DNA of 64,000 bases from Candidatus Omnitrophota bacterium (GTDB lineage: Bacteria; Omnitrophota; Gorgyraeia; Gygaellales; Profunditerraquicolaceae), in NCBI GenBank assembly GCA_041651035.1, contig JBAZKC010000002.1, positions 30,884 through 94,883 on the forward strand, written 5' to 3'. Every line of letters begins with the position of its first letter. The first letter of the stretch is position 1. The position numbers and the translations under genes are program-made. This document shows positions 1,606-51,067 of the stretch, in pieces. The notes beneath the pieces were generated by a model that saw only the letters and a program-made list of their open reading frames with translations, ran no database searches and had not been told where the DNA came from.

Positions 1606-2456
1606 TCAGGAAAATTAAGAATATAAGAAGAGAAATAAATAAGGTAAAGGCAGGAAAAAAAACTATAGGTTTTGTTCCGACGATGGGAGCGTTGCATGAG
1701 GGGCACCTTAGCCTTATACGCCAGGCGCGCGCGGACAATGATTATGCCATAGTGAGTATATTCGTTAATCCTGTTCAATTCGGGCCGAAGGAAGACTTTA
1801 AGAAGTACCCCAGAAATCTGCCGCGGGATGCCGCTTTATGCAGAAAAGAAGGAGTAGATATTATATTTTATCCAGATATAAAAGAGATGTATACGGGAGA
1901 TTTTAAAGCGTATGTGGATGTCCAGGGCTTAAGCGGAGTTTTATGCGGCTTGTCCCGTCCGGGGCATTTTAAAGGCGTTGCCACGGTAGTAGCAAAGTTG
2001 TTTAATATAATCAGCCCGGATATAGCTTATTTCGGCCGCAAGGATGCTCAACAGGCGGTAATTATCAAGAAGATGACTGAAGATCTGAATTTTCCTGTTA
2101 AGGTTAAAGTTATGCCTATTGTGCGCCAGAAAGACGGCTTAGCGATGAGCTCAAGAAATACCTATCTGAGTAAAAAAGAGAGGAAAGACGCGTTAGTCTT
2201 GCCTGAGTCATTAGGCCTGGCTAAGGATTTGATTTATAGGGGCATAAAGGATCCAGGTAAGGTTATCCGCGGCATGAAGCAGCTTATACAGGGCAAGGGG
2301 TCTATCCGGATTGATTATATATCTATTCTGGATTTTGATACCCTAAAGCCGGTTAAGAAGATAATTGATAATTGCCTGATAGCTTTGGCAGTGCGTATCG
2401 GTAAAACCAGGCTGATAGATAATGCCGTAATATCTAAGGGACGTTTCTTGAGCTGA
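1596..2456 (+). CDS. panC: Pantoate--beta-alanine ligase
   Basis: 286 aa with GFVPTMGALHEGHLSL HIGH-type motif. Overlaps the folK end. Its last 6 codons and stop lie inside a palindromic element. Confidence 0.9.
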   Translation: MRVIRKIKNIRREINKVKAGKKTIGFVPTMGALHEGHLSLIRQARADNDYAIVSIFVNPVQFGPKEDFKKYPRNLPRDAALCRKEGVDIIFYPDIKEMYTGDFKAYVDVQGLSGVLCGLSRPGHFKGVATVVAKLFNIISPDIAYFGRKDAQQAVIIKKMTEDLNFPVKVKVMPIVRQKDGLAMSSRNTYLSKKERKDALVLPESLGLAKDLIYRGIKDPGKVIRGMKQLIQGKGSIRIDYISILDFDTLKPVKKIIDNCLIALAVRIGKTRLIDNAVISKGRFLS

Positions 2457-2496
2457 TCCCTGCCTGCCGGCAGGCAGGGGAGATCTGTCCCTTTTT
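2438..2496. terminator. GGGAC..GTCCC palindromic element acting as an intrinsic-terminator-like hairpin with a T5 tract
   Basis: gggac at 2438-2442, a perfect 22-nt GC palindrome ccctgcctgccggcaggcaggg at 2458-2479, gtccc at 2487-2491, then ttttt. Contains the panC stop codon (2454-2456). Confidence 0.6.
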
Positions 2497-2499
2497 AAA

Positions 2500-3324
2500 A
2501 TGATGAAAAGATTAAAAATCGGAATTGTGGGGTGCGGAGCGATCGGCAGTTCTCTAGCTAAAGCAATAGCTAGTGATTTTAAGAAGGAAGCAGAGCTATC
2601 CGCGTTTTACGATATTGATACTAAGAAATCCCGCGATTTATCAAGAACGGTCTCTAATAAGCGCGATTTAGTGGTCCGGGGGCTTAAACAATTAATTGAT
2701 AGATCTGAATTGGTGATCGAGGCATCTTCTGCCAAGAGTTCCTGGGGAATAACCAAGAATGTCTTAACAAGGCGGCGCGATATTATGGTTATGAGTGTAG
2801 GCGGGGTAGCCGGCCATTTCCGGGAATTAAGCGGGCTGGCAAAGAGGTATGGTTGCAGGGTTTATATTCCCAGTGGAGCCATTGCCGGTATCGACGGTAT
2901 AAAAGCGGCGGGGATCGGAAAGATCAGAAGGGTTACGCTTACTACGCGTAAGAATCCCAAATCTTTTAAAGGCGTTGAGTATATTAAAAAGAAGGGTATC
3001 AATTTAGATAAGATCAAAAAAGATACTACGTTATTTTCCGGCAGCGCCAAAGAAGCGGTTAAGTGTTTTCCTCAAAATATCAATGTTGCCGGGTTATTGA
3101 GTATTGCCGGTGTCGGGGAGGATAAAACCAAGGTTAGGATCATCGCCTCTCCGGATACAAAGAAGAATATCCATGAGGTCAGGATAGAATCGGAAGGTGC
3201 TAAGATATTTACGAGGACCGAGAATATCCTTCATCCCGATAATCCTAAAACAAGCTATCTGGCGGTATTATCGGCAGTAGCGGTTTTAAAACAGATTTTA
3301 GGCCCGGTTAAGGTCGGCACTTAA
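2500..3324 (+). CDS. Aspartate dehydrogenase domain protein (NadX-like)
   Basis: 274 aa, N-terminal Rossmann motif KIGIVGCGAIGSSLAKAI and overall NadX-like layout. Confidence 0.6.
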   Translation: MMKRLKIGIVGCGAIGSSLAKAIASDFKKEAELSAFYDIDTKKSRDLSRTVSNKRDLVVRGLKQLIDRSELVIEASSAKSSWGITKNVLTRRRDIMVMSVGGVAGHFRELSGLAKRYGCRVYIPSGAIAGIDGIKAAGIGKIRRVTLTTRKNPKSFKGVEYIKKKGINLDKIKKDTTLFSGSAKEAVKCFPQNINVAGLLSIAGVGEDKTKVRIIASPDTKKNIHEVRIESEGAKIFTRTENILHPDNPKTSYLAVLSAVAVLKQILGPVKVGT

Positions 3325-3359
3325 TTAAAATAACATAAAGAAAGGGGGTGAATCAAGAT

Positions 3360-3599
3360 ATGGCACAGAAAATAGTAAAGTTGGGTATAAAGCGTCAAAA
3401 AGGCTGCCTCTATTACGTTGACAAGCAGGGTGATGTTTCCTGCGCTACAATGGCCAGAGGCAAGAAAAAAGGAGGAAGCCCTAAAAAAGTAGCGAAAGCA
3501 GGTATAAAGAGAAAAGAAGGGTACCTTTATTTCGTTGACAAACAGGGTGATGTCTCTTGCGCTAAGATGAAAAGGGGCGGTAAGAAGAAAAAGAAATAA
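3360..3599 (+). CDS. Small lysine-rich protein with an internal tandem duplication (two Cys-containing repeats), function unknown
   Basis: Repeat 1 is KLGIKRQKGCLYYVDKQGDVSCATMARGKKKGG and repeat 2 is KAGIKRKEGYLYFVDKQGDVSCAKMKRGGKKKKK. An aagggggtg RBS lies 8 nt before the ATG at 3360; the track start at 3348 is a GTG with no spacing to the RBS. Confidence 0.55.
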   Translation: MAQKIVKLGIKRQKGCLYYVDKQGDVSCATMARGKKKGGSPKKVAKAGIKRKEGYLYFVDKQGDVSCAKMKRGGKKKKK

Positions 3600-3620
3600 G
3601 CGGATAGTAAACAATAACCC

Positions 3621-3670
3621 TATAACCCCGCGCCTTTTAACACATGCATATTAAAGGGCGCGGGGTTATC
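3621..3670. terminator. Perfect 13-bp inverted repeat hairpin (ataaccccgcgcc / ggcgcggggttat) with a 22-nt partly palindromic loop
   Basis: Seen directly in the sequence between the small basic protein gene and the B12 radical SAM gene. There is no clear U-tract, so it may be a terminator or a 5' UTR structure. Confidence 0.4.
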
Positions 3671-7909: not shown

Positions 7910-10417
7910 ATGAATAAATCCATAAAAATATTCTTATTATTAGCGGTTGTTACAGGCTGCCTGCTGTGGGCCTCTGCCATAAATATAGGAGGGATCAGCC
8001 ATAAATCTTATGCCCAGGAATCTTCTAAAGAAGAAGAGGCGCTATTCGTCGCGAAAAAAGCATTTGAAGACGGGTTTTATGAAGTAAGCCTGGGCTTATT
8101 GGAGCGGTTCTTGAATAATTACCCTGGTTCATCCAAAGCGGTGGAAGCAAATTTATTAATAGGCAGGTGCTATTTCCAGCAAAATAAGTTCTTAGACGCC
8201 CTGGCTAAATTTGAAGGCCTCTTGGGTCAGCCCCAGGCTTTAAATGTAAGAGATGCTGTTCTTTACTGGATCGCCGAAGCGCATTTTAAAGGGAATGGCT
8301 TTAACGCGGCCGCGACTTATTACCAAAGGATAATCAATGAATTCCCCAGGTCTTCTTATATTCCCGCTGCTTATTATTCTCTGGGCTGGTGTTTATTTCA
8401 GGAACAGAAGTTCCAGCAGGCCCTGGAATACTTTAAGGTTGTGGAGGAAAAATATCCAAGGGAACCGCAGGCAAGAGATGTCCCCTTTAAGATAGCCGAA
8501 TGCCTTTATAACTTAAAAGATTACTCCGGATTAAAATCCAGGCTTAAGGATTATATAAAAATATATTCCCAGGATCCTACCCGCCTGTCTTATCTTTATT
8601 TTTATATGGCGGAAGCCGAGTATTATCTTAATAACTTTTCCGTTGCCGCCGATTGGTACCATAAGGCTTTTAACAGCAGCCGCGACGATAAGATACAGGC
8701 ATTATCTAAGCTGGGCCAGGCTTGGGCGTATCTAAAATTAAAACAATACAAAGATTCCGAAGCGGCGTTGAGGGAGGTTAAGGCCGATAAACTGGAAAAG
8801 AAGAACGTTGATGTTTTATTGCTGGGCAAAGCTATATTAATGACAGAGACCAACCGGGTTAATGAAGCGGAGGGGATATACCAGGAGCTGTTAAACACGA
8901 CCCTTGATCCGCTCGTTTTGATCCAGGCATATCTTGGCAAGGGCGACGCTCTCTATAACCTTGCTGATTATCAAGAAGCTGTAAATGTGTATAAAGAAGC
9001 TATTGTTAAGGCTGGCGCGGGGACTGTCTCCGGAGAAATGGTTGATAAACTGCATTATAATCTGGCTTGGGCTTTCTTGAAACAAGGAGAGTTTAAGGAG
9101 GCTATAAAAGAATTCCAGAAGATCATAAAGACCAGTGATGATAACATTGTTAAGGCCAGCGCCCTTTGCCAGATAGGAGACGCGTATCAAGATTCGGGTG
9201 ATTACAATAAAGCGCAAGAGACCTACGATACCATATTAAAGGATTATCCCGATAATTTCTACGGTGATTATGTACAGTACCAATTGGGTCTTACCTTGCT
9301 TAAGAATTCAAATTACGACGGAGCGGTCTTAAGCTTCTTGACTCTCAAAAATAACTTTCCTAAATCTAAACTTTTAGACGATGCCTCTTACGCTTTGGGG
9401 CTGGCTTATTTTCAGAAGCAGGACTATAACTCAAGCAAGGATGTTTTCGCGAAGTTCCAGGAAGAGTTTAAGGATAGCAGCTTAAGGCCGCAAGCGATGT
9501 ATCTTTTGGGCACCAGCTTGTATAATCTCGGGGATTTTCCGGGGGCCATAGAGGTGTTTAAAAATATCGCCAGGGGCTACGGCCAGGATACGGAATTGAC
9601 CCAGAAGGCCGAATATGAAATAGCGGATTGTTTTTATCAGATGGGCGAGGAAAAAGAAGCCATGGCAAGATTTAAGGCGTTACGCTCTAAATACCCTGAC
9701 TCCAAGCTCACCCCCGAAATTATGTGGTGGTTAGGAGAATACTACTACAGGCATAATGAATTGGAACTGGCGCGCCGGTATTTTACTTCTCTGATACGGG
9801 ATTTTCCCAAGAGTAATTTGATCGCTGATGCTTATTACGCTTTAGGCTCGAGCTTCACAGAGGAATCCCGGTACGAAGAAGCGATAGAGAATTTTAAGAA
9901 GATCGAAGAGCCGGGCAGGTCTGACCTTAGCGGCCAGGCGGCTGTCGCCATAGCCGATATTTATGTAAAACAGGACAAGGCTGATTCAGCTTTAAATACA
10001 TACCAAGAGGTCATTAAAGAATACCCCGGGCTTACGAATTTAGTTTATCCTAAAATGGCAGGTTTGTTCTACAAAATGAATAAATTAGCCCAGGCTTTAG
10101 ATTTTTATCGCCAGAGCCTGGATCTTGTGCCGGCAAAAGAGATGGCGGGTATCCAATTCAAGATAGCCGAAGTCCTAGAGGCGCAGGAGAAGATCCAGGA
10201 GGCTATAGAAGAGTACCTTAAGGTTACCTACCTTTACGCGGAGGATAACAATTTAGCGGTAAAGGCGCTTTTAAGGGTAGCGGAGATTTATGAGGGGAAG
10301 GGGGATCTTAAAGAAGCAGTCAGCATCTACAAAAGAATTATTTCCCTGAATACCGAAGAAGCAAAATACGCTCAAGAGCGGATAGATTGGATAAAAACTA
10401 ACAATAACAGGAGGTAG
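7910..10417 (+). CDS. Tetratricopeptide-repeat protein with N-terminal signal peptide
   Basis: 835 aa. Signal-like N-terminus, then many 34-residue A..Y..G..Y..A TPR units and YbgF-like repeats. Confidence 0.8.
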   Translation: MNKSIKIFLLLAVVTGCLLWASAINIGGISHKSYAQESSKEEEALFVAKKAFEDGFYEVSLGLLERFLNNYPGSSKAVEANLLIGRCYFQQNKFLDALAKFEGLLGQPQALNVRDAVLYWIAEAHFKGNGFNAAATYYQRIINEFPRSSYIPAAYYSLGWCLFQEQKFQQALEYFKVVEEKYPREPQARDVPFKIAECLYNLKDYSGLKSRLKDYIKIYSQDPTRLSYLYFYMAEAEYYLNNFSVAADWYHKAFNSSRDDKIQALSKLGQAWAYLKLKQYKDSEAALREVKADKLEKKNVDVLLLGKAILMTETNRVNEAEGIYQELLNTTLDPLVLIQAYLGKGDALYNLADYQEAVNVYKEAIVKAGAGTVSGEMVDKLHYNLAWAFLKQGEFKEAIKEFQKIIKTSDDNIVKASALCQIGDAYQDSGDYNKAQETYDTILKDYPDNFYGDYVQYQLGLTLLKNSNYDGAVLSFLTLKNNFPKSKLLDDASYALGLAYFQKQDYNSSKDVFAKFQEEFKDSSLRPQAMYLLGTSLYNLGDFPGAIEVFKNIARGYGQDTELTQKAEYEIADCFYQMGEEKEAMARFKALRSKYPDSKLTPEIMWWLGEYYYRHNELELARRYFTSLIRDFPKSNLIADAYYALGSSFTEESRYEEAIENFKKIEEPGRSDLSGQAAVAIADIYVKQDKADSALNTYQEVIKEYPGLTNLVYPKMAGLFYKMNKLAQALDFYRQSLDLVPAKEMAGIQFKIAEVLEAQEKIQEAIEEYLKVTYLYAEDNNLAVKALLRVAEIYEGKGDLKEAVSIYKRIISLNTEEAKYAQERIDWIKTNNNRR

Positions 10418-20603: not shown

Positions 20604-20632
20604 TTGACAAAATTGTTTTTAGATGATAAACT
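20604..20632 (+). promoter_or_regulatory. Candidate promoter TTGACA-17-(TGa)TAAACT upstream of the first pilin
   Basis: TTGACA at 20604-20609; extended -10-like TGATAAACT. Confidence 0.35.
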
Positions 20633-20663
20633 GTGTGGCATTAACAATAACAGGAGGTGTCAA

Positions 20664-21092
20664 ATGAGTAGGAAAGGTTTTACGTTGCTGGAGTTGATAG
20701 TAGTAATGGTTATTATCGGTGTACTGGCTACCTTAGGTTTTAATCAATACGGAAGGATGATAGAAAGGGCTCGCGGCGCTGAAGCCAGGTCAATTTTAGG
20801 GGATATCCGCAAGTACTCTGCCGCTTATTATCTGGAAAACGGCGCGGTTACAAATCTTACCGCGACCCTTGTTAATATCGGCACGGATAACGATCAAATC
20901 CCCAGCGCATGCGCTGACTCACATTATTTCAGTTACGCTCTGACTTCCCATGTAGATCCTACTATAGTAGCTACTGCTACGCGTTGCATAGCGGATGGAA
21001 AGACTCCTGATGCGGCTACAGCCTCAACGCTTATCCTTACTTCAAATATGTCTACAGGGGTAGATGCCTGGAGCGGGACTGGCGGTTATTAA
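20664..21092 (+). CDS. Type IV (major-type) pilin, prepilin N-terminal cleavage/methylation domain
   Basis: MSRKGFTLLELIVVMVIIGVLATL has the G|FTLLE class III signal. A caggaggtg RBS precedes it, and its C-terminal domain differs from the next three pilins. Confidence 0.85.
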   Translation: MSRKGFTLLELIVVMVIIGVLATLGFNQYGRMIERARGAEARSILGDIRKYSAAYYLENGAVTNLTATLVNIGTDNDQIPSACADSHYFSYALTSHVDPTIVATATRCIADGKTPDAATASTLILTSNMSTGVDAWSGTGGY

Positions 21093-21125
21093 TTTCTATA
21101 AAGACAAATAACCCGCTGGAGTACA

Positions 21126-21539
21126 ATGAAGGATAAGGGGTTTACTTTAATAGAGCTTATTGTTGTTATTATTGTCATCGGTGTTCTGGTGACTTTGACT
21201 TTTACCCATTATGGCTCATACACGGAACGCGCTTTAAATAAAGAGGCCCAGGCAAACCTAAGGTTGATCATAGCGGCAGAACGCAATACTAGAGTAGAAA
21301 CAGGCGATTACTATGCCAGCGATTCCACTCAACCTACGGCAATAAATAATATAAATACTAATCTAAGGCTATCCCTTTCAGCGGCAACTAACCGAAAGTG
21401 GGATTACGTCACTACGGTTGATAACGCGGCTGATCCTCCTACCTGTTGTGCTCAGGCAACGAGGAATGGCGATGATTCCAGGACTTATAGGATCCGTGAT
21501 ACCGAAGACAACCCGGTCGCAGACGGTACTTGTCCATAG
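21126..21539 (+). CDS. Type IV pilin paralog A
   Basis: MKDKGFTLIELIVV..; C-terminal CCAQATRNGDDSRTYRIRDTEDNPVADGTCP disulfide loop. Confidence 0.85.
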   Translation: MKDKGFTLIELIVVIIVIGVLVTLTFTHYGSYTERALNKEAQANLRLIIAAERNTRVETGDYYASDSTQPTAINNINTNLRLSLSAATNRKWDYVTTVDNAADPPTCCAQATRNGDDSRTYRIRDTEDNPVADGTCP

Positions 21540-21572
21540 ACAGCCGACCTTTCGTAAGGCGCCCAAAATAAA

Positions 21573-22049
21573 ATGCGTAAAAAAAGCCTTACCTTTGCTC
21601 CCATACCCGGAAAACAGAGAATAAATACGCCGGCAGCGCGCGGTTTTACTTTGATGGAGATCCTGGTGGTTATTATTATAGTAGCTATTCTGGCAACTTT
21701 GGCTATAAACCAATACCGTTCATATAAGGAACATGAACTGGATAAAGAGGCGCAGGCAACCCTAAGGTTGATTATGGGGGCAGAAAAGATCTACCGCATG
21801 GAGATAGGCGGTTACTATGCCAGTGGTCCCACTCAACCTACGGCAATAAGCAATATAAATACTAATTTAAGGTTATCTATTTCTACGGCAACTAACCGGA
21901 ACTGGGACTATATCACTACAGCCGATAACGCGTCTCCTATTCCTGTTAGCTGTACTCAGGCTACAAGGAATGAGGATGAAACTGACGCCAGGACTTATAG
22001 GATACGCAATACTGAAGATGATCCTGTCGCGAACAGTATTTGTCCATAA
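21573..22049 (+). CDS. Type IV pilin paralog B with a 19-aa insertion in the leader
   Basis: MRKKSLTFAPIPGKQRINTPAARGFTLMEILVV..; the C-terminal motif CTQATRNEDETDARTYRIRNTEDDPVANSICP is shared with paralogs A and C. Confidence 0.8.
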   Translation: MRKKSLTFAPIPGKQRINTPAARGFTLMEILVVIIIVAILATLAINQYRSYKEHELDKEAQATLRLIMGAEKIYRMEIGGYYASGPTQPTAISNINTNLRLSISTATNRNWDYITTADNASPIPVSCTQATRNEDETDARTYRIRNTEDDPVANSICP

Positions 22050-22063
22050 GGGATACCCACAAA

Positions 22064-22477
22064 ATGCGTAAAAAAGGCCTTACCTTGATGGAACTCCTGG
22101 CGGTTATTGTTATAGTCGGTGTTTTAGCAACTTTGGGTTTAGGCCAATACCGTTTATACAAGGAACGTGAATTAGATAAAGAGGCGCAGGCAAACTTAAG
22201 GTTGATTACGGGGGCAGAAAAGATCTACCGCATGGAGGCAGGCAGTTACTATCCTTATATTGGAGGCACTGTTGACAACATGGCCAGTATTAATACTGAC
22301 TTAGGTTTGCTTTTGCCTACAGGCTCCGGCCGCGCGTGGAATTATCTTACGATAGCTACTGTCAGCCCCGCTGCTTTCTGCGCTCAGGCCACAAGGAATG
22401 AGGATGAGGATGACGCCAGGACTCATAGAATACGCAATACCGAAGACGATCCGGTTGCGGACGCTATTTGTCCATAG
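22064..22477 (+). CDS. Type IV pilin paralog C
   Basis: MRKKGLTLMELLAV.. and the C-terminal CAQATRNEDEDDARTHRIRNTEDDPVADAICP. The junction sequence tgtccata-N-cacaaaatgcgtaaaaaagg is repeated before paralogs B and C. Confidence 0.85.
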   Translation: MRKKGLTLMELLAVIVIVGVLATLGLGQYRLYKERELDKEAQANLRLITGAEKIYRMEAGSYYPYIGGTVDNMASINTDLGLLLPTGSGRAWNYLTIATVSPAAFCAQATRNEDEDDARTHRIRNTEDDPVADAICP

Positions 22478-22491
22478 AGGATATTCACAAA

Positions 22492-23590: not shown

Positions 23591-23614
23591 GTGTGTCCCT
23601 AAAGATAATTTTAC

Positions 23615-27685: not shown

Positions 27686-28967
27686 ATTCATTACTTTAGG
27701 CTGTAAGGTAAATCAATTTGATACCCAAAGTATAAGAGAGAGGTTCTTAGGGGCAGGGTACTCGGAAATAGATAACGGAAAACCCGCGGATATTTACCTG
27801 ATTAATACCTGCACAGTTACGCATAGGGCGGACTCTGATTCTCTTAATCTTATCCGCAAAGCAAAAAGAGAGAACTCCCGCGCCAAGATCATAGTTACCG
27901 GCTGCCTTACAGAACTTGATGAAGATTTAATAAGGCAGGCTGCAGCCAAGGTGATAATTGTAAAAAATAAGGATAAAGAAAAGCTGCCTTCACAGGGACT
28001 GACCCCGAAATATAACTCCCGAAGAGCTGTTCTTAGGGGTCTGTCCCTAAGAGCCAACAGCATTTCTTACTTCAAAGGCCACACCCGCGCATTCTTAAAA
28101 ATTCAGGACGGCTGCGATAATTTTTGTTCTTACTGCAAAGTCCCGTTAGTAAGAGGGAGATCGCGTAGCCGTGGCTTAGACAAGATTGTAAGCGACGCGC
28201 GGCAGCTGGTAAAAAACGGTTTTAAAGAGATAGTGCTATGTGGTATTTGCCTGGGTTCGTATGGTAAAGGCTTAAGCAGCGGCAAAAATCTTGTTGATGT
28301 GATTGAAGCGCTGGAAAAAATAGACGGGTTATTGCGCATCAGGTTGAGTTCTATAGAAGCAGGTGATGTTTCAGATAAATTGATTGCTAAGATGGCAGGC
28401 TCCGAGAAATTATGCCCGCATCTGCATATTCCTATCCAAAGCGGTGATGACGATATTTTAAAGAAAATGAACCGCCGCTATAGCCGTAAGGATTATCTGG
28501 CGCTTATCAAAAGAATAAAAAAGAATATTCCCGAAGTTGCCATTACTACGGATGTATTAGTAGGTTTTCCCGGAGAATCTGAATGCAACTTTCAAAATAC
28601 CCTGAAATTAATCAAGGAAATTCTGCCTTTAAAAGTGCATATTTTCCCTTATTCTCCGAGAAAAGGCACACTGGCTAGCGCAAAATTCAATCAAAGGATA
28701 GACCCTGGAATAATAAAAGAAAGGATTGCCCGGCTTAAGGACGTCGCCGGCAGTTGTTCGCTTGAATATAAAAAACAATTCTTGAATAGGAATATGCAGG
28801 TGCTTGTTGAAGGCCGTTCCAAAGAAAACCCCGCTTTCTGGCAGGGCCATACAGGAAATTTCCTAGAGGTTCTAATAAGGTTAGATCTTAATCTAAGCAA
28901 TAAAATCGTTACAACTAAATTAAGAAAACTAAAGGACGATTTTGTTTTAGCGGAGATTTTTCATTAG
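27675..28967 (+). CDS. mtaB: tRNA methylthiotransferase, MtaB/MiaB-like (MTTase N-domain, radical SAM, TRAM)
   Basis: MKTVKFITLGCKVNQFDTQ.., CDNFCSYCKVP radical SAM cluster. Carries a 61-bp in-frame palindromic element at 27993-28053 in the inter-domain linker. Confidence 0.85.
   Translation, partial: KTVKFITLGCKVNQFDTQSIRERFLGAGYSEIDNGKPADIYLINTCTVTHRADSDSLNLIRKAKRENSRAKIIVTGCLTELDEDLIRQAAAKVIIVKNKDKEKLPSQGLTPKYNSRRAVLRGLSLRANSISYFKGHTRAFLKIQDGCDNFCSYCKVPLVRGRSRSRGLDKIVSDARQLVKNGFKEIVLCGICLGSYGKGLSSGKNLVDVIEALEKIDGLLRIRLSSIEAGDVSDKLIAKMAGSEKLCPHLHIPIQSGDDDILKKMNRRYSRKDYLALIKRIKKNIPEVAITTDVLVGFPGESECNFQNTLKLIKEILPLKVHIFPYSPRKGTLASAKFNQRIDPGIIKERIARLKDVAGSCSLEYKKQFLNRNMQVLVEGRSKENPAFWQGHTGNFLEVLIRLDLNLSNKIVTTKLRKLKDDFVLAEIFH
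27993..28053. repeat. Type A GGGAC/GTCCC palindromic element, in-frame inside mtaB
   Basis: cagggactgaccccgaaatataactcccgaagagctgttcttaggggtctgtccctaagag; translated as QGLTPKYNSRRAVLRGLSLRA. Confidence 0.8.
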
Positions 28968-28968
28968 A

Positions 28969-29026
28969 CAGGGACTGGGTCCGAAATATAGCACCAGCAT
29001 GGTTGTTCTTAGGAGCCTGTCCCTAT
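28969..29026. repeat. Type A palindromic element, intergenic, directly after the mtaB stop
   Basis: cagggactgggtccgaaatatagcaccagcatggttgttcttaggagcctgtccctat. Confidence 0.8.
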
Positions 29027-29045
29027 TTATTTTAGCAGAATTATC

Positions 29046-29073
29046 TTGATTTTTAGCCTTTTAATTATATAAT
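29046..29073 (+). promoter_or_regulatory. Candidate promoter TTGATT-16-TATAAT upstream of the paralog array
   Basis: TTGATT at 29046-29051 and TATAAT at 29068-29073. Confidence 0.4.
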
Positions 29074-29104
29074 AAAATCAACCAAGCCCTTAGTAAAGGA
29101 ATAT

Positions 29105-29764: not shown

Positions 29765-29772
29765 AGGAATAT

Positions 29773-30405: not shown

Positions 30406-30418
30406 AAAGAGGTGTATA

Positions 30419-31123
30419 GTGTTTAAGAACAAGTTTTTATTCTTTCCGCCACTAATCTTTATTTTATTTCTTATTCCAAATTATTTCCTTTTTGCCGAAG
30501 AAACTCTCACTATCACCTCCTATTATCCGTCACCTTACGGCAGCTACAACGAGCTCCGCGCTAAGCGTATAGCCATAGGAGATAACTATATCAATACCAC
30601 TACCTATACCTGGGAGGCAACCGACGGAGATGGAGGAGAGGTTGATTACTTAGCTGATCTGATAGTTGAAGGCAGGGTAGGCATTGGCACGGTTACTCCT
30701 ACTGTCCCGCTGCATGTTACAGGTACATCAACCGGGGCTGTAAGGATAGTAGACGGCAACCAGGCTTCAGGCTATGTCCTGACTTCAGACGCAAACGGCG
30801 TAGGCAAATGGCAGGCAAGTTCAGGTGGTACAAGTTATACATACTATTGTTATAACTCTACATATACTAGTATGTTTGGAGTCGTGATGGCTTCTACTGG
30901 TACCCCCCAATGTACCGACTCCGGAGGCACTCGAGGTTATTGCCCCGCAGGATATACGCAGAAGCTCGCGCTTGGCTCATGGGGTATATGTGCGGCAGGC
31001 GTTCTTACCTACTATGGATATTTTCTTCCTCCGAGTGGCAGTTGTGGTACCGTGAACATATCAGGTACAGATTTTGCTGCGGCTGCTGTTGTTTACGGCA
31101 CAGCATACGTTTGTTCTCAGTAA
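30419..31123 (+). CDS. Secreted Cys-rich protein, paralog 3 (probable GTG start)
   Basis: The GTG at 30419 is preceded by an aaagagg RBS. Mosaic similarity to paralogs 1 and 2, with the longest C-terminal tail. Confidence 0.6.
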   Translation: MFKNKFLFFPPLIFILFLIPNYFLFAEETLTITSYYPSPYGSYNELRAKRIAIGDNYINTTTYTWEATDGDGGEVDYLADLIVEGRVGIGTVTPTVPLHVTGTSTGAVRIVDGNQASGYVLTSDANGVGKWQASSGGTSYTYYCYNSTYTSMFGVVMASTGTPQCTDSGGTRGYCPAGYTQKLALGSWGICAAGVLTYYGYFLPPSGSCGTVNISGTDFAAAAVVYGTAYVCSQ

Positions 31124-31303: not shown

Positions 31304-31405
31304 GACAGGGACAGCCCCCAATAGCGGCGGGACACTTTCCATTGAGTTACCTTGTTTTAGCTCTGATGGAAGGTGTCCCGTAACTGTTTTCGGGGACAGT
31401 CCCTT
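31304..31405. repeat. Composite nested palindromic element (gggacagcccc .. gggacactttcc .. ggaaggtgtccc .. ggggacagtccc) followed by a T6 tract
   Basis: Seen directly: outer gggacag arms and inner gggacac/gtgtccc arms. This may act as a terminator. Confidence 0.7.
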
Positions 31406-31459
31406 TTTTAAAATAATTTCCCTTGCTGAAGGCCGTTTTTATGATAGAATTTACATATT

Positions 31460-36187: not shown

Positions 36188-36192
36188 TTACA

Positions 36193-36254
36193 CAGGGACT
36201 GTCCCCGAAATGTAGCTCCTGATGGGCTGTTCTTAGGGGACTGCCCCTAGAGAG
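36193..36254. repeat. Type A palindromic element between proB and proA
   Basis: cagggactgtccccgaaatgtagctcctgatgggctgttcttaggggactgcccctagagag. Confidence 0.8.
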
Positions 36255-42264: not shown

Positions 42265-42271
42265 ACGCTTA

Positions 42272-42339
42272 GGGACACCCTTTTTGCCAATCGAGGGACA
42301 CCCTTTCAGCTAATCGGGAGGGTGTCCCTTCAAGGGACA
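42272..42339. repeat. gggacaccc-type palindromic element (two direct gggacaccctttt copies plus inverted agggtgtccc) between rpsA and tyrS
   Basis: gggacaccctttttgccaatcgagggacaccctttcagctaatcgggagggtgtcccttcaagggacat; can form a 9-10 bp hairpin. Confidence 0.7.
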
Positions 42340-45600: not shown

Positions 45601-46507
45601 GTGCCTCAAACTCGACTCTGCTGAGTTTGAGATCTTGATCTTGCCTGACGAACCTATTGCCCAAAGGGACAGTCTCTGTTCGGGGACAGTCCCTATTAGA
45701 GTTATTCCCACGGGCCCTGTGTCTCCGGCTGATAAGCGGGACATAGCCATAAAATACGCGAAAGGAGACATCGTTGCTTTTATCGATGACGATGCCTATC
45801 CGGTAAAAGATTGGCTTAAAAACGCGTTAGAGAATTTTAAAGATGAAGAGGTGGCCGCGGTAGGGGGGCCGGCAATAACCAGCCCTCTGGACAGCTTAAG
45901 ACAAAAAGCAAGCGGCGCGATATATTCGTCGTTTTTAGTAAGCGGGGGATTTGTCTATCGTTATCTGCCTAAGGAAAAAAGAGAGATAGATGATTATCCG
46001 AGTTGTAATCTTCTGGTCCGTAAATCCATAATGCGGGAGTTAGGCGGTTTTAATACCAAGTTCTGGCCGGGAGAAGATACTAAGCTTTGCCTGGATATAA
46101 CTGTCAGGCTCGGTAAAAAGATAATTTATGACCCCGGTGTCCTGGTTTATCATCACCGCCGGCCGGTCTTTGTCCCCCATCTTAAGCAGATAGCTAATTA
46201 TGCCCTTCATCGCGGTTATTTCGTAAAGAAATACCCCGAAACCTCTTTAAAGTTGCCTTATTTTATTCCCACGCTATTTCTATTCGCGCTGACAATAGGC
46301 GCTATCTTGTCTATGGTTTCAGCTCCCATTAGAATAATTTATTCTTTAGGGTTGTCGTTATATTTAATTTCAGTTTTTATTTCTAGTATTCGTAATGGCG
46401 CGCGTTTGGCACCTTTTGTATTTTTCGGCATAATATTTACTCATTGCACCTATGGTTTTTATTTCCTGAAAGGCCTTTTTTACCAGAAGCTTTCCGAAGA
46501 AAAATAA
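45536..46507 (+). CDS. Glycosyltransferase family 2 with C-terminal membrane helices
   Basis: VSIIIVVK..IDDDAYP; contains a 28-bp in-frame GGGAC element at 45666-45693 (SLCSGTVP). The start overlaps the upstream GT2 by 65 nt. Confidence 0.75.
   Translation: MTVSIIIVVKTWQKNLEECVGKCLKLDSAEFEILILPDEPIAQRDSLCSGTVPIRVIPTGPVSPADKRDIAIKYAKGDIVAFIDDDAYPVKDWLKNALENFKDEEVAAVGGPAITSPLDSLRQKASGAIYSSFLVSGGFVYRYLPKEKREIDDYPSCNLLVRKSIMRELGGFNTKFWPGEDTKLCLDITVRLGKKIIYDPGVLVYHHRRPVFVPHLKQIANYALHRGYFVKKYPETSLKLPYFIPTLFLFALTIGAILSMVSAPIRIIYSLGLSLYLISVFISSIRNGARLAPFVFFGIIFTHCTYGFYFLKGLFYQKLSEEK
45666..45693. repeat. Short gggacagtc / ggggacagtccc element inside the GT2 CDS
   Basis: gggacagtctctgttcggggacagtccc. 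Confidence 0.6.
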
Positions 46508-46508
46508 T

Positions 46509-46744
46509 GGGGACGGTTCTCTTCGAGAACCGTCCCCAGGTTTCACCAAAACAGGGACTGGTTCCGAAAGCTATTTAAAATCGCGGGGATAATTTGTCAT
46601 TCTGAACTACTACTCTTTTAGTCATTCTGAGCGAAGCGAAGAATCTGTTTTTAGATTCTTCGGCCTGCGGCCTCAGAATGACGACAAGACAGGGACTGGT
46701 CCCGAAAAGTAGCTCAATATAGACTGTTCTTAGGGACCTGTCCC
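46509..46744. repeat. Intergenic nest of palindromic elements: a type B hairpin, a partial type A arm, a long gtcattctgag hairpin and a full type A element
   Basis: 46509-46537 ggggacggttctcTTCGgagaaccgtcccc (13-bp stem, UUCG loop). 46552-46575 cagggactggttccgaaagc. 46621-46682 gtcattctgagcgaagcgaagaatc..gattcttcg..ctcagaatgac, with an extra gtcattctga copy at 46596. 46690-46744 cagggactggtcccgaaaagtagc..ctgttcttagggacctgtccc. Confidence 0.8.
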
Positions 46745-46754
46745 AAAAATAAAT

Positions 46755-48248
46755 ATGAAAATTATAATTTCTTACCCGCCGTTAAAGAACCAAAAAGGCT
46801 GCCCTACGCTTGGCCAAAACCGCCAGTTCCAGTATTTTAAAGACGAAACATTTATTTATCCGGTAGTCCCGGCGCAGGCGGCTACACTGCTAAAACAAGC
46901 AGGGCATGAAGTTATTTGGAATGATTGCCTGGCTCAAGGCTGGGATTACAAAAGGTTCCTTGATTTTATAAAATCTGAGAATCCTGACCTGATCGCTTTT
47001 GAAACAAAAACTCCCGTGATCAAGCAGCACTGGCAGATAATAAACGATATTAAGGGACTGTCTCTGAATGCCCCTAAGATAGCCTTATTCGGCGACCACG
47101 TTACTGCTCTTCCGGAAGAATCATTCCAGAATTCAAAAGTAGACTTTGTATTGACTGGAGGCGACTATGATTTCTTGCTTCTGAATTTATGCAATAACCT
47201 TCAGGGGACGGTTCTCAAAGAGAACCGTCCCCATGTTTTGCCTGCCCCTGAGTTTGAACCCGGCATCTATTATCGCGAAAACAACCAAATTAAAAATACC
47301 GGAAAATTTGAGCTTAACCATGACTTAAATTCACTCCCGTTTATCGATCGTGACTTAACCAAGTGGCAGCTATATGCCCGTAAGAACGGAAATTATAAGA
47401 GGACTCCCGGGACCTACATTATGTCCGGCAGGGATTGTTGGTGGGGAAAATGCACATTTTGCAGCTGGGGGAGTTTCTATCCGTCATTCCGCAGCCGCTC
47501 TGCCAGTAACGTGTTGGATGAGATCGGTGATCTGATAAAACGGTATGGGGTAAGAGAAATAATGGATGATACGGGTAGCCTTCCTACAGGAGGGTGGCTT
47601 AGAGAATTTTGCCGGGGCATGATCTCGCGCGGCTATAATAAAAAAATTTATTTAGACTGCAATATGCGTTTTGGCGCGTTGTCAGCGGAAGAGTACCGGC
47701 TGATGAAGGAAGCCGGGTTTCGTCTGCTTTTATTTGGCTTAGAATCCGCGAATCAGTATACTTTAGACAGGGTAAATAAGAAACTGCGGGTTCAGGATAT
47801 TATTGATTCCTGTAGATCAGCCCGTAAAGCAGGGTTATTCCCGCATATTACGCTTATGTTTGGTTACCCTTGGGAAAGTTATTCCGATGCCTTAAACACC
47901 CTAAAACTGGGGAAATGGTTATTGACTAAGGGTTGCGCTTATACGATGCAGGCAACTGTAGTTATCCCGTATCCCGGCACTCCTCTTTTTGAAGAATGCA
48001 GGAAAGAACGTTGGCTAAAGACCTTAGACTGGGATGATTATGATATGAAGAAGCCTGTGATGACAACCGCCATACCCGATAATAAAATTTTAGGGTTGGT
48101 CCAGGATATGTATAAAGTTTCTTTCCGACCGGATTTTATTTTAAGAAAGATATTTTCCCTAAGGGATATTGAAGATGTAAAATACTCTTTGCGCGCGGCA
48201 AAGAAGGTGTTGGGGCATATTTTTGATTTTAAGAAGGGGGAAAGATGA
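46755..48248 (+). CDS. B12-binding domain radical SAM protein (sugar-modifying candidate)
   Basis: 497 aa, cobalamin-binding N-domain, radical SAM core. Contains an in-frame type B element at 47205-47233 (GTVLKENRPH). Confidence 0.75.
   Translation: MKIIISYPPLKNQKGCPTLGQNRQFQYFKDETFIYPVVPAQAATLLKQAGHEVIWNDCLAQGWDYKRFLDFIKSENPDLIAFETKTPVIKQHWQIINDIKGLSLNAPKIALFGDHVTALPEESFQNSKVDFVLTGGDYDFLLLNLCNNLQGTVLKENRPHVLPAPEFEPGIYYRENNQIKNTGKFELNHDLNSLPFIDRDLTKWQLYARKNGNYKRTPGTYIMSGRDCWWGKCTFCSWGSFYPSFRSRSASNVLDEIGDLIKRYGVREIMDDTGSLPTGGWLREFCRGMISRGYNKKIYLDCNMRFGALSAEEYRLMKEAGFRLLLFGLESANQYTLDRVNKKLRVQDIIDSCRSARKAGLFPHITLMFGYPWESYSDALNTLKLGKWLLTKGCAYTMQATVVIPYPGTPLFEECRKERWLKTLDWDDYDMKKPVMTTAIPDNKILGLVQDMYKVSFRPDFILRKIFSLRDIEDVKYSLRAAKKVLGHIFDFKKGER
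47205..47233. repeat. Type B palindromic element in-frame inside the radical SAM CDS
   Basis: ggggacggttctcaaagagaaccgtcccc (13-bp stem, aaa loop). Confidence 0.75.
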
Positions 48249-49114
48249 AAGGAATAATTTTAGCAGGAGGCAAGGCCAGGAGGCTGTATCCGATCACCAA
48301 GGGGGTCTGTAAGCAAATGCTCCCTATTTACGACAAGCCTATGATTTATTATTCTCTATCTACGTTGATGCTTGCCGGTATAAAGAATATCCTGATAATT
48401 TCTACTCCGGTTGCTCTGCCTAGATTCAAGGATTTATTAGGCGATGGCTCTCTTTTGGGTATTAACATTTCCTATGCCCAACAGCTTGAGCCAAAAGGCA
48501 TAGCCGAAAGTTTTATCGTAGGAGAAAATTTTATCGGGGACGATAAGGTTTGTTTAATATTAGGAGATAATATATTTTACGGGCACAATCTTACCGGGAT
48601 CCTGAAAGAGGCCCGTTCCCTAAAGGAAGGGGCAGCGGTTTTTGGCTATTATGTAAAAGACCCCTCAAGATACGGAGTAATAGGGCTTAACGCTCGGGGC
48701 AGGGTAATCTCAATCCAAGAGAAGCCAAAAAAACCGGCATCCAACTGGGCAATTACTGGATTGTATTTCTATGATAACGAAGTAGTCCGCATCTCAAAGA
48801 GCCTCAAGCCTTCTTACCGCGGAGAATTAGAGATAACCGATGTTAATAACGAATATTTAAAGAAAGGGAAACTTAAAGTCAAACTTTTAAACCGCGGATA
48901 CGCCTGGTTGGATACAGGTACTTGCGATTCTTTAATTGACGCTTCGATGTTCATTAAAACCATAGAAGAGAGGCAAGGGTTAAAGATCGGCTGTATTGAA
49001 GAAGTGGCTTATAGAATGGGGTATATCAACAAAAAACAATTGGCAAATTTGGCGCGGGAAATAGGCACAAATTATGGCGAATACCTAAAGAGCATATTAA
49101 AAGATGAAGAATAA
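48245..49114 (+). CDS. rfbA: Glucose-1-phosphate thymidylyltransferase
   Basis: MKGIILAGGKARRLYPITK..KQMLPIYDKPMIYY signature. Confidence 0.92.
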   Translation: MKGIILAGGKARRLYPITKGVCKQMLPIYDKPMIYYSLSTLMLAGIKNILIISTPVALPRFKDLLGDGSLLGINISYAQQLEPKGIAESFIVGENFIGDDKVCLILGDNIFYGHNLTGILKEARSLKEGAAVFGYYVKDPSRYGVIGLNARGRVISIQEKPKKPASNWAITGLYFYDNEVVRISKSLKPSYRGELEITDVNNEYLKKGKLKVKLLNRGYAWLDTGTCDSLIDASMFIKTIEERQGLKIGCIEEVAYRMGYINKKQLANLAREIGTNYGEYLKSILKDEE

Positions 49115-49952
49115 AATCCTTATTTTAGGCAATGGTTATATCGGTAATAGGCTTTGCGAGGAGCTCGGAGCCGAGCTTGCCGGAGGGAGGATCAGTTCTT
49201 TGCTAGATGCGCAAGAACAGATCCAGATGTATAAGCCTAACATCATTATTAACTGTATCGGGCATACCGGAAGAAACGTTGATGATTGCGAACTGGATAA
49301 GGATAAGACATTAATGGCGAATACATTTGTCCCCGTGATCTTAGGCGAAGCGGCGCTGCGCGATAATATTAAACTCATCCATATCAGCAGCGGATGTATT
49401 TACAAATTTGATTATTCTCAGGATAGTCCTATTAAAGAAGATAAGACGCCCGATTTCTTTAGGCTCTTTTATAGCCGGACCAAGATATACGCCGAACAGG
49501 CGTTAAAGGCATTGTTTAAAGAATGTCCGGCACTGATCGTCAGGATACGCATACCGCTGGACAACCGGCCCCATCCTAAGAATCTGCTTACTAAGCTGCT
49601 GGAGTACAAGAAGATTATCGATATTCCCAATTCAGTTACCTATATCCCAGATTTTATAGAAGCTTTAAAACATTTGATCCATATTAATGCCGAGGGTATT
49701 TACAATGTCGTCAATAGAGATGGCTTGCGCTACCCCGACCTTTTAGATGCATATAAGAAATACATTCCGGATTTTCAATACCGGGTCGTTGACTACAAGG
49801 AATTGAATTTAGTAAGGACTAACCTGATATTGTCTACGGCTAAACTCCAGAGATCCGGCTTTAAGGTGAGAGATATTAATTCTGTTTTAGACGAATGTGT
49901 AAGGGGATATTTGGGATATTCAGGGACTGTCCCCACCAAAGCTATTAGTTAG
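49104..49952 (+). CDS. dTDP-4-dehydrorhamnose reductase-like (RmlD substrate-binding family)
   Basis: ILILGNGYIGNRL Rossmann, HISSGCIY, YSRTKIYAE catalytic YxxxK. The last 10 codons and stop are encoded by the palindromic element at 49921. Confidence 0.65.
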   Translation: MKNKILILGNGYIGNRLCEELGAELAGGRISSLLDAQEQIQMYKPNIIINCIGHTGRNVDDCELDKDKTLMANTFVPVILGEAALRDNIKLIHISSGCIYKFDYSQDSPIKEDKTPDFFRLFYSRTKIYAEQALKALFKECPALIVRIRIPLDNRPHPKNLLTKLLEYKKIIDIPNSVTYIPDFIEALKHLIHINAEGIYNVVNRDGLRYPDLLDAYKKYIPDFQYRVVDYKELNLVRTNLILSTAKLQRSGFKVRDINSVLDECVRGYLGYSGTVPTKAIS

Positions 49953-49981
49953 CCATAACCAAGGGGACTGTCCCTAAAGAG
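49921..49981. repeat. Type A-variant palindromic element spanning the rfbD-like 3' end
   Basis: cagggactgtccccaccaaagctattagttagccataaccaaggggactgtccctaaagag. Confidence 0.75.
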
Positions 49982-49990
49982 GGTGGTATA

Positions 49991-51028
49991 ATGACCAATA
50001 AATCTATCTTGATTACCGGCGGCGCGGGTTTTATCGGCAGCGCCTTTGTAAGATTGTTAAATCAAGGGGACGGTTCTGCCTTTGGTAGAACCGTCCCCGA
50101 GTTTCACAGAACAGGAACTGTCCCTAAGATTATAGTAGTAGACAGCCTTACCTATGCCGGAGATTTAAAGCGTCTTAAAGAAGCAAAGGGCAGATTTAAG
50201 TTCTACAAAGTTGATATTTGCGATAAGAAAAGAATGGAAGCGGTCTTCGCGAAAGAAAAACCGCAAGCCGTAGTGCACTTTGCCGCGGAAAGCCACGTTG
50301 ACCGCAGTATTAATGATGCTACGCCATTTATTGAAACTAATATTAAGGGCACACAAATTCTTCTTGATGCCGGCCGCAAGCACGAGATAAATAAATTTAT
50401 TTTTATTTCCACCGACGAGGTCTACGGAGAGATTGCCAATGGCAAGTTTAACGAAAATTCTCCAATTAGGCCGAACAGCCCTTACGCGGCTTCTAAAGCG
50501 GCAGCAGACCTCCTGGTGCAGGCATATATCAGGACTTACAAATTCCCCGCGATAATTATCCGGCCGTCAAATAATTACGGCCCCTGGCAATACCCGGAAA
50601 AACTCATTCCCTTAGCTGTTTTAAAAATATTGCGCGATAAAAAAGTGCCTGTTTATGCTCAGGGCAAGAATGTCCGGGAGTGGCTTTATGTGGAAGACTG
50701 CGCGAAAGGAATTATGCGGATATTGCAAACGGGAAAGCTTGGGCAGGTTTATAACCTGGGAAGCAATGAAGAAAAACAGAATATAGACGTGGTGAAAATG
50801 ATCTTGAATATTTTCAATAAGCCCGAAAATATGATTGAATTTGTAAAGGACAGGCCCGGGCATGACATACGCTATAGCCTGGATTCCAGGAAGGCCCGTC
50901 GGGAAACTAATTGGAAACCGAAAATAAAGTTCAAAGAAGGCATTAAATTGACCGTATCTTGGTATCTCAAAAACAAGAGTTGGCTTCTTAGTAAATATCC
51001 GTCAGCAGGGACTGGTCCCGAAAAGTAG
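49991..51028 (+). CDS. rfbB: dTDP-glucose 4,6-dehydratase
   Basis: ILITGGAGFIGS.., YAASKAAAD (YxxxK). Has a 62-bp composite element inserted in-frame after the Rossmann motif (50067-50128), and its C-terminus and stop lie inside the element at 51006. Confidence 0.88.
   Translation: MTNKSILITGGAGFIGSAFVRLLNQGDGSAFGRTVPEFHRTGTVPKIIVVDSLTYAGDLKRLKEAKGRFKFYKVDICDKKRMEAVFAKEKPQAVVHFAAESHVDRSINDATPFIETNIKGTQILLDAGRKHEINKFIFISTDEVYGEIANGKFNENSPIRPNSPYAASKAAADLLVQAYIRTYKFPAIIIRPSNNYGPWQYPEKLIPLAVLKILRDKKVPVYAQGKNVREWLYVEDCAKGIMRILQTGKLGQVYNLGSNEEKQNIDVVKMILNIFNKPENMIEFVKDRPGHDIRYSLDSRKARRETNWKPKIKFKEGIKLTVSWYLKNKSWLLSKYPSAGTGPEK
50067..50128. repeat. Composite type B + partial type A element in-frame inside rfbB
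   Basis: ggggacggttctgcctttggtagaaccgtccccgagtttcacagaacaggaactgtccctaag; colinear with the intergenic composite at 46509-46575. Confidence 0.8.
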
Positions 51029-51067
51029 CTTAAGATGAACTGTTCTTAGGGACCTGTCCCTAAAGAG
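51006..51067. repeat. Type A palindromic element overlapping the rfbB stop
   Basis: cagggactggtcccgaaaagtagcttaagatgaactgttcttagggacctgtccctaaagag; the rfbB TAG is the aaaagTAG inside the element. Confidence 0.8.

Follow-up and report, generated by a model that had tools for sequence, protein, structure and literature searches.

A 64-kb stretch of Candidatus Omnitrophota DNA (hereafter the window; positions refer to its first letter) carries about 14 loci of short hairpin repeats bounded by GGGAC and GTCCC. We consider it likely that these repeats belong to a superfamily of interspersed hairpin elements of 35–100 nt, which are non-autonomous mobile ('selfish') DNA of the kind represented by REP/REPIN elements and MITEs (miniature transposable elements with inverted repeats). 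The window sequence also lies within a 385-kb contig of metagenomic origin in ENA (ERZ27247363 k141_96912). All statements on the elements refer to the window and to the related loci that were scanned, the nearest relatives of the window organism having MtaB proteins of about 65% identity.

The GGGAC hairpins form a dispersed repeat family

The original prediction, made from the letters of the window, had listed at least 15 palindromic copies; every listed site was found at its given position. Within the window, 26 pairs of GGGAC and GTCCC lie 130 nt or less apart, compared with 2.4 ± 1.7 (maximum 9) in 200 first-order Markov shuffles. This is an enrichment of about tenfold, and the family thus stands out from shuffled sequence, as the prediction would have it. 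An unguided repeat search recovered five copies of one form (type A) as a single direct-repeat family and the hairpins of a second form (type B) as an inverted pair.

A covariance model (R1) was built from 13 type A copies (alignment A2) and run unfiltered over the whole window. The type A copies at 27993, 28969, 36193, 46690 and 51006 (59 nt) scored 68.5–80.8 bits with E values of 1e-16 to 1e-19, and the variant at 49921 scored 35.7 bits. The remaining GGGAC hairpins matched the model weakly, through the common foot. Model R1 found no copy past 51.1 kb in the window, in agreement with the predicted confinement to the first 52 kb. The number of copies had to be revised: in place of a firm 15, we count about 14 loci, several of which are nested in one another or composite.

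Several details of the prediction were refined. Type B had been described as a perfect 13-bp hairpin, which holds at 46509 and 47205; the copy at 50067 has a 12-bp stem and a longer loop. The composites of type B and type A at 46509 and 50067 proved to be colinear for some 58 nt. Sites 42272, 45666 and 31304–31405 do hold the gggacaccc and gggacagtc types, but the inner hairpin at 31329–31379 reads GGGACACTTTCC... and not GGGACACCC. A supposed remnant of 13 nt at 23591 is indistinguishable from chance. A search of the window with the Rfam 15 covariance models at the gathering threshold gave a tRNA-Ala as the sole match and none at the elements; at E ≤ 10, no Rfam match overlapped any element in 46450–51150.

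A covarying stem with a conserved T·T mismatch

The feature common to all forms is a stem with the foot AGGGAC...GTCCCT. In the main class the stem has 12 bp, GGGAC-T-GNNCCC pairing with GGGNNC-T-GTCCC, and its inner pairs covary. Type A is predicted to fold into a 12-bp stem of GGGACUGNNNCC with GGNNNCUGUCCC, topped by a small and variable inner hairpin. Across the 13 type A copies, which come from several organisms, stem pairing is 92%; pair 12–51 is AU in five copies, UA in five and GC in three, and is unpaired in none. The covariation score was reached in 0 of 500 shuffles, and controls with a slid register collapsed. At stem position 6, T stands opposite T (U·U in RNA) in every copy.

The minimal form has 35 nt and reads AGGGACTGTCCCCG-loop-GGGGACTGTCCCTA, that is, the stem with a loop of 2–3 nt; it occurs at 45662 (minus strand) and in the related loci L127, L133 and L149. 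Compared with this minimal form, types A and A2 have one more module in their interior. In A2, which is found at 49921, at 46547 and in L121 and L147, the same stem encloses another interior. Different inner stems stand on this foot in type B (GGGGACGGTTCTC...GAGAACCGTCCCC), which is also found in L132 and L149, and in the GGGACAC type. The foot itself can change in a compensatory manner, as in the copy of L125, where it reads GGGTC/GACCC. As far as the sequences go, a conserved foot with interchangeable interiors is the look of a repeat family and not of a single structured RNA.

The elements fold with z-scores of -2.5 to -5.5, and their reverse strands fold equally well. The foot is headed by CAGGGAC in all window copies, and GTAGGGAC is seen only in L127, L129 and L131. 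On the 3' side, TA flanks about 14 of 16 copies; on the 5' side it flanks four.

Copies inside genes and in operon spacers

All real genes of the window lie on the plus strand, the GC skew is positive along its whole length and the spacers between genes are very short. As the original prediction held, the elements are found both between and inside genes. Copies lie in frame in four genes of the window, namely mtaB, rfbB, a GT2 glycosyltransferase gene and a radical-SAM gene. In total, five copies are intragenic and three overlap gene ends (panC, rmlD and rfbB). The insert in RfbB appears as a clean gap of 15–16 residues in comparison with the solved RmlB structures (PDB 6bi4 and 1bxk). In another species, the valyl-tRNA synthetase (ValRS) gene of L133 holds four copies in both orientations, including an antisense type A.

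In six-frame translation most frames of the element contain stops, yet every intragenic copy is open and in frame. Because the reading frames are intact, this argues for translation of the intragenic copies and for selection on which of the insertions are kept. That these copies are spliced out or bypassed in translation was considered and is unlikely, since all copies are in frame and free of stops while most frames carry stops.

Between the preceding stop codon and the start of a spacer copy there are 0–15 nt. Where the spacer is tight (36193, 46690, 49921, 51006, L121 9941 and L127) the copies end 6–14 nt ahead of the next ATG; the copies at 28969 and in L128, L129/L130 and L132 lie 43–360 nt from the next start. 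By our own tally, about 15 of the 17 long forms that could be placed are oriented in the sense direction. Replication here runs in the same direction as the genes, which makes an effect of the replication strand inseparable from one of transcription. Selection offers an available explanation of the bias, because a reversed copy resembles a terminator, with a U-run after its hairpin, and would do harm within an operon. The reverse copies at 2434–2495 and 31304–31407 place a hairpin followed by T5–T6 on the sense strand and were flagged as terminator-like.

Among the intergenic copies, a terminator scan found a hairpin with a U-run only at these reverse-oriented sites (2473–2489 and 31392–31404). 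The scan also flagged type B at 47204–47232 (plus strand, inside the radical-SAM gene) and at 46538–46508 (minus strand). Overall it returned 25–27 terminator-like sites, compared with shuffle means of 19.0–22.4, so that an excess is not clear. Type A itself was rejected as a terminator: its sense copies are followed by TAAAGAG, without a U-run.

Occupancy of orthologous sites

The linker between the UPF0004 and radical-SAM domains of MtaB, which holds a type A copy in the window, is hypervariable in 120 orthologues, with 20–64 residues over the compared stretch. In nine of the 120 the linker contains a member of the superfamily, of subtype A, A2, short or B. Outside two small clades, these nine proteins are not mutual nearest relatives.

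A clade of four orthologues (P0052, P0060, P0074 and P0067; 81–88% identity) contains filled and empty sites side by side, as P0067 lacks the element. The filled and empty proteins are 84–88% identical, and the flanks of the site are about 90% identical at the nucleotide level. In comparison with P0067, the gene of P0060 has exactly 39 extra nucleotides, ATTTATTGAA-GGGACTGTCCCC-GAA-GGGGACTGTCCC-TT, which split one GCA codon; P0052 has a decayed version of 33 nt. At this one site, the 39-nt indel shows no target-site duplication and no flanking direct repeat. Occupancy differs at spacers as well. The proB–proA spacer is filled by type A in the window, and in the syntenic locus L147 it is empty and measures 22 nt. 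Conversely, the rsmE–mtaB junction is occupied by an A2 copy in L121, whereas that of the window is empty.

This linker of the MtaB orthologues (P0001–P0120, aligned to about 27950–28080 of the window) contains in many species other repetitive peptides, such as NELNEHNGPNGHN, SQLITHNSQLIT and TQYAIRDT. These may be translations of other, species-specific repeat families.

Related elements in other genomes

A search of related contigs, which the original prediction had suggested, showed that the family recurs in other species. A pattern scan of metagenome contigs gave nine further type A copies, on contigs with a GC content of 37–47%. The pattern required CCGAAA and GTTCTTAGG, so that the cross-species conservation of those bases is partly imposed. 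The 3' arm and the T·T mismatch were absent from the pattern and are nonetheless invariant in the scanned copies. The A2, short and B forms were found in L121, L127, L132, L133, L147 and L149.

Outside Omnitrophota, the GGGAC-T-G hairpin occurs in its short form on an uncultured Planctomycetia contig (L069). In a model search of unrelated control loci (100 of 119 loci, 0.73 Mb), L069 was the sole convincing match. A loose pattern, CAGGGACTGNNNCCGAAA, gave mostly chance matches in a genome collection; among the matches listed, only L069 is a real short form. The GGGAC-T-G.../...C-T-GTCCC hairpin was also found on eleven IMG/VR contigs with a GC content of 49–72%, some of them densely populated.

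The IMG/VR contigs L146, L138 and L143 (GC 67–72%) hold 18–32 foot pairs in 4–10 kb, in dense clusters. On L137, long-form hairpins lie in sense orientation in two intercistronic spacers (3208–3303 and 8313–8367; also in L145). This contig encodes a Mu-like phage structural module (portal, Mu F and gp36), and phages could carry the elements between hosts.

Concatenated translations of the elements were compared with a collection of 5.8 billion proteins; scores were low and a single protein, P0241, was returned. P0241 (317 aa, JGI) is a high-GC protein of the epimerase family, and its end, ...GRDSPLRGQWVGTVPFGDSP..., is what two units of the GGGACAGTCCCC type give when translated, which suggests that coding read-through of such hairpins occurs outside Omnitrophota.

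Proposed mechanism

Taken as mobile DNA, each element would be acquired or lost as one discrete piece, with no duplication of the target site. They are probably moved as single-stranded DNA hairpins by an enzyme that would act in trans and be encoded outside the window; our best guess is an HUH/Y1 transposase of the RAYT or IS200/IS605 type. Mobilisation as a single-stranded hairpin is suggested because the pairing of the arms is kept by compensation, because a strand-specific T·T is kept on an otherwise perfect stem, which is unexpected for double-stranded terminal inverted repeats (TIRs), and because no duplication is produced. Such a mismatch is characteristic of the hairpins read by HUH/Y1 enzymes in IS608 and in REP/RAYT systems.

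As the genome has hardly any spacer DNA, survival of a copy would be limited to places that tolerate it. Between cistrons the survivors would be mostly in sense orientation, since in a reversed copy the A-rich 5' flank would become a U-run after the hairpin, resembling a terminator. Inside genes, survivors would be limited to linkers, loops and C-termini and to stop-free frames, giving peptides such as GLSP..GTVP, GQSP..GTVP and GTVLKENRP. Some settled copies have probably been co-opted as mRNA hairpins or terminators.

A wider picture can be drawn, which we regard as rather doubtful. The elements would then belong to an ancient REPIN-like system, common to Omnitrophota, Planctomycetota and their Mu-like phages and served by its own hairpin-specific enzyme. 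They would have colonised coding sequences on a scale so far documented only for Rickettsia, as the four copies of one ValRS and the repeated insertions in the MtaB linker illustrate. The long forms would at the same time serve between cistrons as mobile RNA modules (a hairpin with a tail resembling a ribosome-binding site) that rewire operon expression.

Alternative explanations

The elements could instead be primarily functional RNA hairpins, with type A as a cis-acting intercistronic module (an mRNA stabiliser, processing site or translation modulator) selected by the host. The covarying stem would suit such a role, as would G·U pairs of the inner helix on the sense strand and the fold z-scores; so would the sense bias of the long forms and their position just past a stop codon and, apart from the four more distant copies, just ahead of an ATG. 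Several copies have a tail, TAAAGAGG / TAACGAGG, that resembles a ribosome-binding site, and the same arrangement recurs in a phage late operon. However, the same units occur in both orientations within coding sequences, where they appear to be translated. The interiors A, A2, short and B are interchangeable on one foot, orthologous spacers do without the element, Rfam offers no match even at E ≤ 10 and the reverse strand folds equally well. Selection against the terminator-like reverse orientation can account for the sense bias. We judge it unlikely that the elements are primarily functional RNAs.

Classical MITEs, derived from an insertion sequence (IS) of the DDE type such as IS630/Tc1-mariner, would explain the arms as double-stranded TIRs and the flanking TA as the insertion target. 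The arms do resemble 12-bp TIRs, TA is frequent at the 3' flank and present at four 5' flanks, and bacterial MITEs are occasionally intragenic with in-frame fusion (PMC10969869). Yet the one filled and empty pair shows no target-site duplication, and the TA belongs to the foot itself, which is paired (AGGGAC/GTCCCT). The two 'ends' differ at position 6, where both arms have T on the same strand, and this T·T is conserved across phyla. A parent IS with such ends was seen in none of the loci. An origin as classical MITEs is, in our assessment, quite improbable.

A protein-binding site amplified by selection fares worse still. On this view a nucleoid protein or regulator, for instance, would bind the near-palindromic 11-mer GGGACTGTCCC, or the 11-mer would serve in DNA uptake. 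Each arm of the common form is indeed a near-palindrome, GGGAC-T-GTCCC, the genome has many type IV pilin-like genes and a pilin of L121 gives a weak Pfam match to ComP_DUS. Nevertheless, only five exact GGGACNGTCCC 11-mers occur in 64 kb, far below the densities of uptake sequences, and the covarying changes keep the two arms paired with each other but disrupt the palindrome of the single arm. On density and on this direction of covariation the idea of an uptake sequence was rejected. Neither the long conserved interiors nor the composite units would be expected of binding sites, and the 39-nt indel behaves as a unit. We give this explanation very little probability. Finally, chance resemblance or an assembly artefact may touch weak items (the 23591 remnant, 47050 and 2434, the last with 8.8 bits), but is already refuted for the core copies, and practically negligible overall, by the E values of 1e-16 to 1e-19 of five copies, the roughly tenfold excess of foot pairs, the identity of the window sequence in independent ENA and Logan assemblies and the homologous copies in other organisms.

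Several observations weigh against mobile DNA itself. First, the window contains no transposase of any kind, and tblastn with the Omnitrophota Y1_Tnp protein found no match in it. This protein (PF01797, 228 aa; Pfam E = 8.8e-15) is encoded beside mtaB in the syntenic locus L121. Its homologues are 60–95% identical, widespread in Omnitrophota and often found on contigs of about 1 kb, and its sites (L121 12294–13330 and L135 9844–10790) have a RAYT-like look. It was rejected as evidence for the mobilising enzyme, which it may nonetheless be: the flanks in L121 and L135 are inverted TAGACGYTKTAGCTAAC repeats and not GGGAC hairpins, and in local alignments with shuffle controls the TAGACGYTKTAGCTAAC repeats had no significant similarity to the elements. 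The RAYT- or IS200-type enzyme that the original prediction had proposed to look for was thus absent from the window, and the candidate from related genomes is flanked by unrelated repeats. Neither the window nor the related loci, which amount to about 200 kb, showed a parent IS with the termini of the elements.

Second, presence/absence polymorphism between strains, also put forward as a check, was not seen: two Logan contigs (L124 and L134) match the window with 100% identity, and L121, L122 and L123, from one other species, are 99.9% identical to each other. Third, the identities within the MtaB clade favour a loss in P0067, and the sequences suggest this rather than three separate gains; the loss could be a simple deletion of a palindrome rather than an excision. 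Fourth, the sense bias of about 15 of 17, together with the conservation of the type A interior across species, could also mean a function at the RNA level, a point qualified by the search pattern, which itself required CCGAAA and GTTCTTAGG. The copy number, moreover, is that of the 64-kb window and not of the rest of the genome.

Weighed together, non-autonomous mobile DNA of the REP/REPIN/MITE kind remains the reading that we favour, as the original prediction had proposed with its MITE/REP/RPE-like family: the elements are dispersed and hairpin-forming, show compensatory changes, recur in other species, sit in frame in genes and differ in occupancy between orthologous sites.

Element loci and their surroundings

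Table 1. Elements of the GGGAC superfamily in the window, with strand, score against covariance model R1 and genomic context.
Position	Strand	Element	Score	Context
2434..2495	-	Variant with GGGAC foot and inner CCCTGCCTGCCGGCAGGCAGGG hairpin	8.8 bits (weak)	Gives the last 6 codons and stop of panC (PanC ends ...SKGRFLS, stop); TTTTT on the plus strand after the element
23593..23603	+	Possible 3'-foot remnant and tail (GTGTCCCTAAAGA), doubtful		Between a promoter-like -10 box and tRNA-Ala
27991..28051	+	Type A	78.8 bits	In mtaB, in frame as SQGLTPKYNSRRAVLRGLSLR, in the UPF0004/radical-SAM domain linker
28967..29027	+	Type A	68.5 bits	Starts directly after the mtaB stop codon; U-rich tail; promoter-like site (29046-29073) on the 3' side
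31304..31407	-	Nested composite; outer arms 31304-31322 and 31389-31407 form a T·T-type 12-bp stem (minus strand)		Second hairpin GGGACACTTTCCAT...ATGGAAGGTGTCCC inside (31325-31383); TTTTTT on the plus strand after the element
36191..36251	+	Type A	78.8 bits	Fills the proB-proA spacer; 3 nt past the proB stop (6 nt counting from 36193), 9 nt ahead of the ATG
42268..42332	-	GGGACACCC-type hairpin, one arm present in an additional copy	13.9 bits	Between an S1-domain gene and trpS
45662..45697	-	Short form, 35 nt	26.7 bits	In the GT2 glycosyltransferase gene, antisense; translation QRDSLCSGTVP
46506..46590	+	Type B (46509-46537), 14-nt linker and truncated A2-type arm (CAGGGACTGGTTCCGAAAGCTAT...)
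46688..46748	+	Type A	75 bits	Ends 6 nt ahead of the ATG of the radical-SAM gene (46755)
47050..47078	+	Probable decayed short form	12.7 bits (E 0.38)	In the radical-SAM gene; KGLSLNAPK
47201..47235	+	Type B		In the radical-SAM gene; translation QGTVLKENRPH
49919..49978	+	A2-type variant, same 12-bp T·T stem, other interior	35.7 bits	Gives the rmlD C-terminus and stop (…SGTVPTKAIS, stop); ends 12 nt ahead of the rfbB ATG
50063..50128	+	Type B, linker and single GGAACTGTCCC unit with TAAG tail		In rfbB; translation QGDGSAFGRTVPEFHRTGTVPK
51004..51064	+	Type A	80.8 bits	Gives the last 7 codons and stop of rfbB (…SAGTGPEK, stop); TAAAGAGAGG tail 14 nt ahead of the next ATG

The coordinates and contexts of the copies are collected in Table 1. 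One contig of a Logan assembly from the same strain has its start precisely at the 47205 copy, as would be expected if the repeats break assemblies. At 46506–46748 the elements form a cluster that includes an unrelated hairpin. This strong hairpin (46596–46684; GTCATTCTGAGCGAAGCGAAGAATC...GATTCTTCGGCCTGCGGCCTCAGAATGAC) is wedged between the truncated A2 arm and the type A copy at 46690 and preceded by a partial direct copy of its own 5' end. Within the window only this one locus has it, and it probably represents another repeat family.

Directly 3' of the type A copy at 28969 and its promoter-like site, three paralogous genes lie in tandem (29086–31123). They repeat with a period of 652–668 nt and a DNA identity of 73–86%, and have no Pfam match. 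Five pilin-like genes, also in tandem, occupy 20604–22878. Their products have N-termini of the GFTL(I/M)E type, and the genes lie downstream of E and F genes of type II secretion or type IV pili, an order that is syntenic in L121 and L149. At 3369–3578, a 93-nt segment is duplicated in tandem inside a small open reading frame, with a spacing of 117 nt and 74% identity. The far end of the window (52000–64000) differs in composition: its GC content is 0.44 at 52–54 kb and 0.35–0.39 from 54 kb on, as against about 0.44 elsewhere. It may be a gene block that was acquired more recently.

Significance and comparison with known systems

Uncultivated, small-celled Omnitrophota with compact genomes thus still appear to host an active-looking population of hairpin repeats. 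The tolerance of copies inside essential enzymes (MtaB, RfbB and ValRS) would mean that selfish DNA has settled in protein-coding genes of a second lineage, unrelated to Rickettsia, and makes the elements a concrete source of novelty in linkers, loops and C-termini of proteins. The conservation of foot and mismatch across Omnitrophota, Planctomycetia and phage is noteworthy, and the conserved T·T on a covarying stem provides a precise substrate for finding the enzyme that recognises it. In practical terms, the repeats break short-read assemblies, could serve as lineage markers and create spurious hypervariable regions in alignments, recognisable by the peptide signatures GLSP...GTVP, GQSP...GTVP and GTVLKENRP.

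Small, non-autonomous, hairpin-forming repeats in operon spacers are also known as Correia/NEMIS elements (Neisseria), ERIC, BOX and RUP, which can act on mRNA stability or termination. Those elements, however, have the double-stranded TIRs of a parent IS and produce duplications (TA for Correia). The present elements differ from them, and from classical MITEs in general, in their strand-specific T·T, in the lack of a visible duplication at the one filled and empty pair and in that no parent IS was found in the window or the related loci. Palindrome-associated elements derived from IS200/IS605 (PATEs) are moved as single strands by 'peel and paste' transposition. The present elements would share with them the recognition of a hairpin on a single strand, in which a T is unpaired or mismatched, and precise gain and loss without duplication. 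The orientation bias of the present elements is compatible with the use of a lagging-strand template, as in the biology of IS608. In contrast, the left and right ends of PATEs bear hairpins that differ from each other, and their target is a fixed tetranucleotide; neither such ends nor such a target could be defined here.

REP/REPIN elements are short hairpins with a doublet architecture and a stem mismatch, and do not produce duplications (PMC3337134, PMC3116915). The present elements are likewise short, imperfect palindromes in many copies, dispersed over 52 kb at about 14 loci, with a minimum of 35 nt and an imperfect 12-bp stem. Their hairpins have a conserved stem mismatch and no target duplication. 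The doublet fits too, as two near-palindromic units pair into one long hairpin, and the clusters and nested composites recall BIMEs. A Y1 transposase family that looks single-copy is conserved across the host phylum. On the other side of the comparison, the window copies begin with CAGGGAC in place of the GTAG/GTGG 5' foot, no RAYT flanked by these hairpins was found in the window, L121 or L135, and the foot of the present elements is common to several phyla. REPs are by definition extragenic; here, at least five of about 14 copies are intragenic with open frames.

Ogata et al. reportedly described, in Science in 2000, Rickettsia palindromic elements (RPEs) that are inserted in frame in genes and translated. 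RPEs are palindromic repeats that lie in frame in housekeeping genes (PMC10969869). The present elements would resemble them closely, as in-frame palindromic repeats in unrelated genes that appear to add loop and terminal peptides, and in neither case is a transposase known. RPEs, however, measure about 100–150 bp and occur in Rickettsia only, whereas the present elements have 35–100 nt, are unrelated in sequence, are found in Omnitrophota and Planctomycetia and also fill intercistronic spacers with an orientation bias. The searchable literature contains no report of this sequence as a bacterial repeat and no link of palindromic repeats to Omnitrophota. On this comparison, the REP/REPIN–RAYT system is the closest in probable working and the RPEs are the closest in behaviour; the GGGAC hairpins are a new family of a known kind of element, RPE-like in behaviour and undescribed so far in this phylum.

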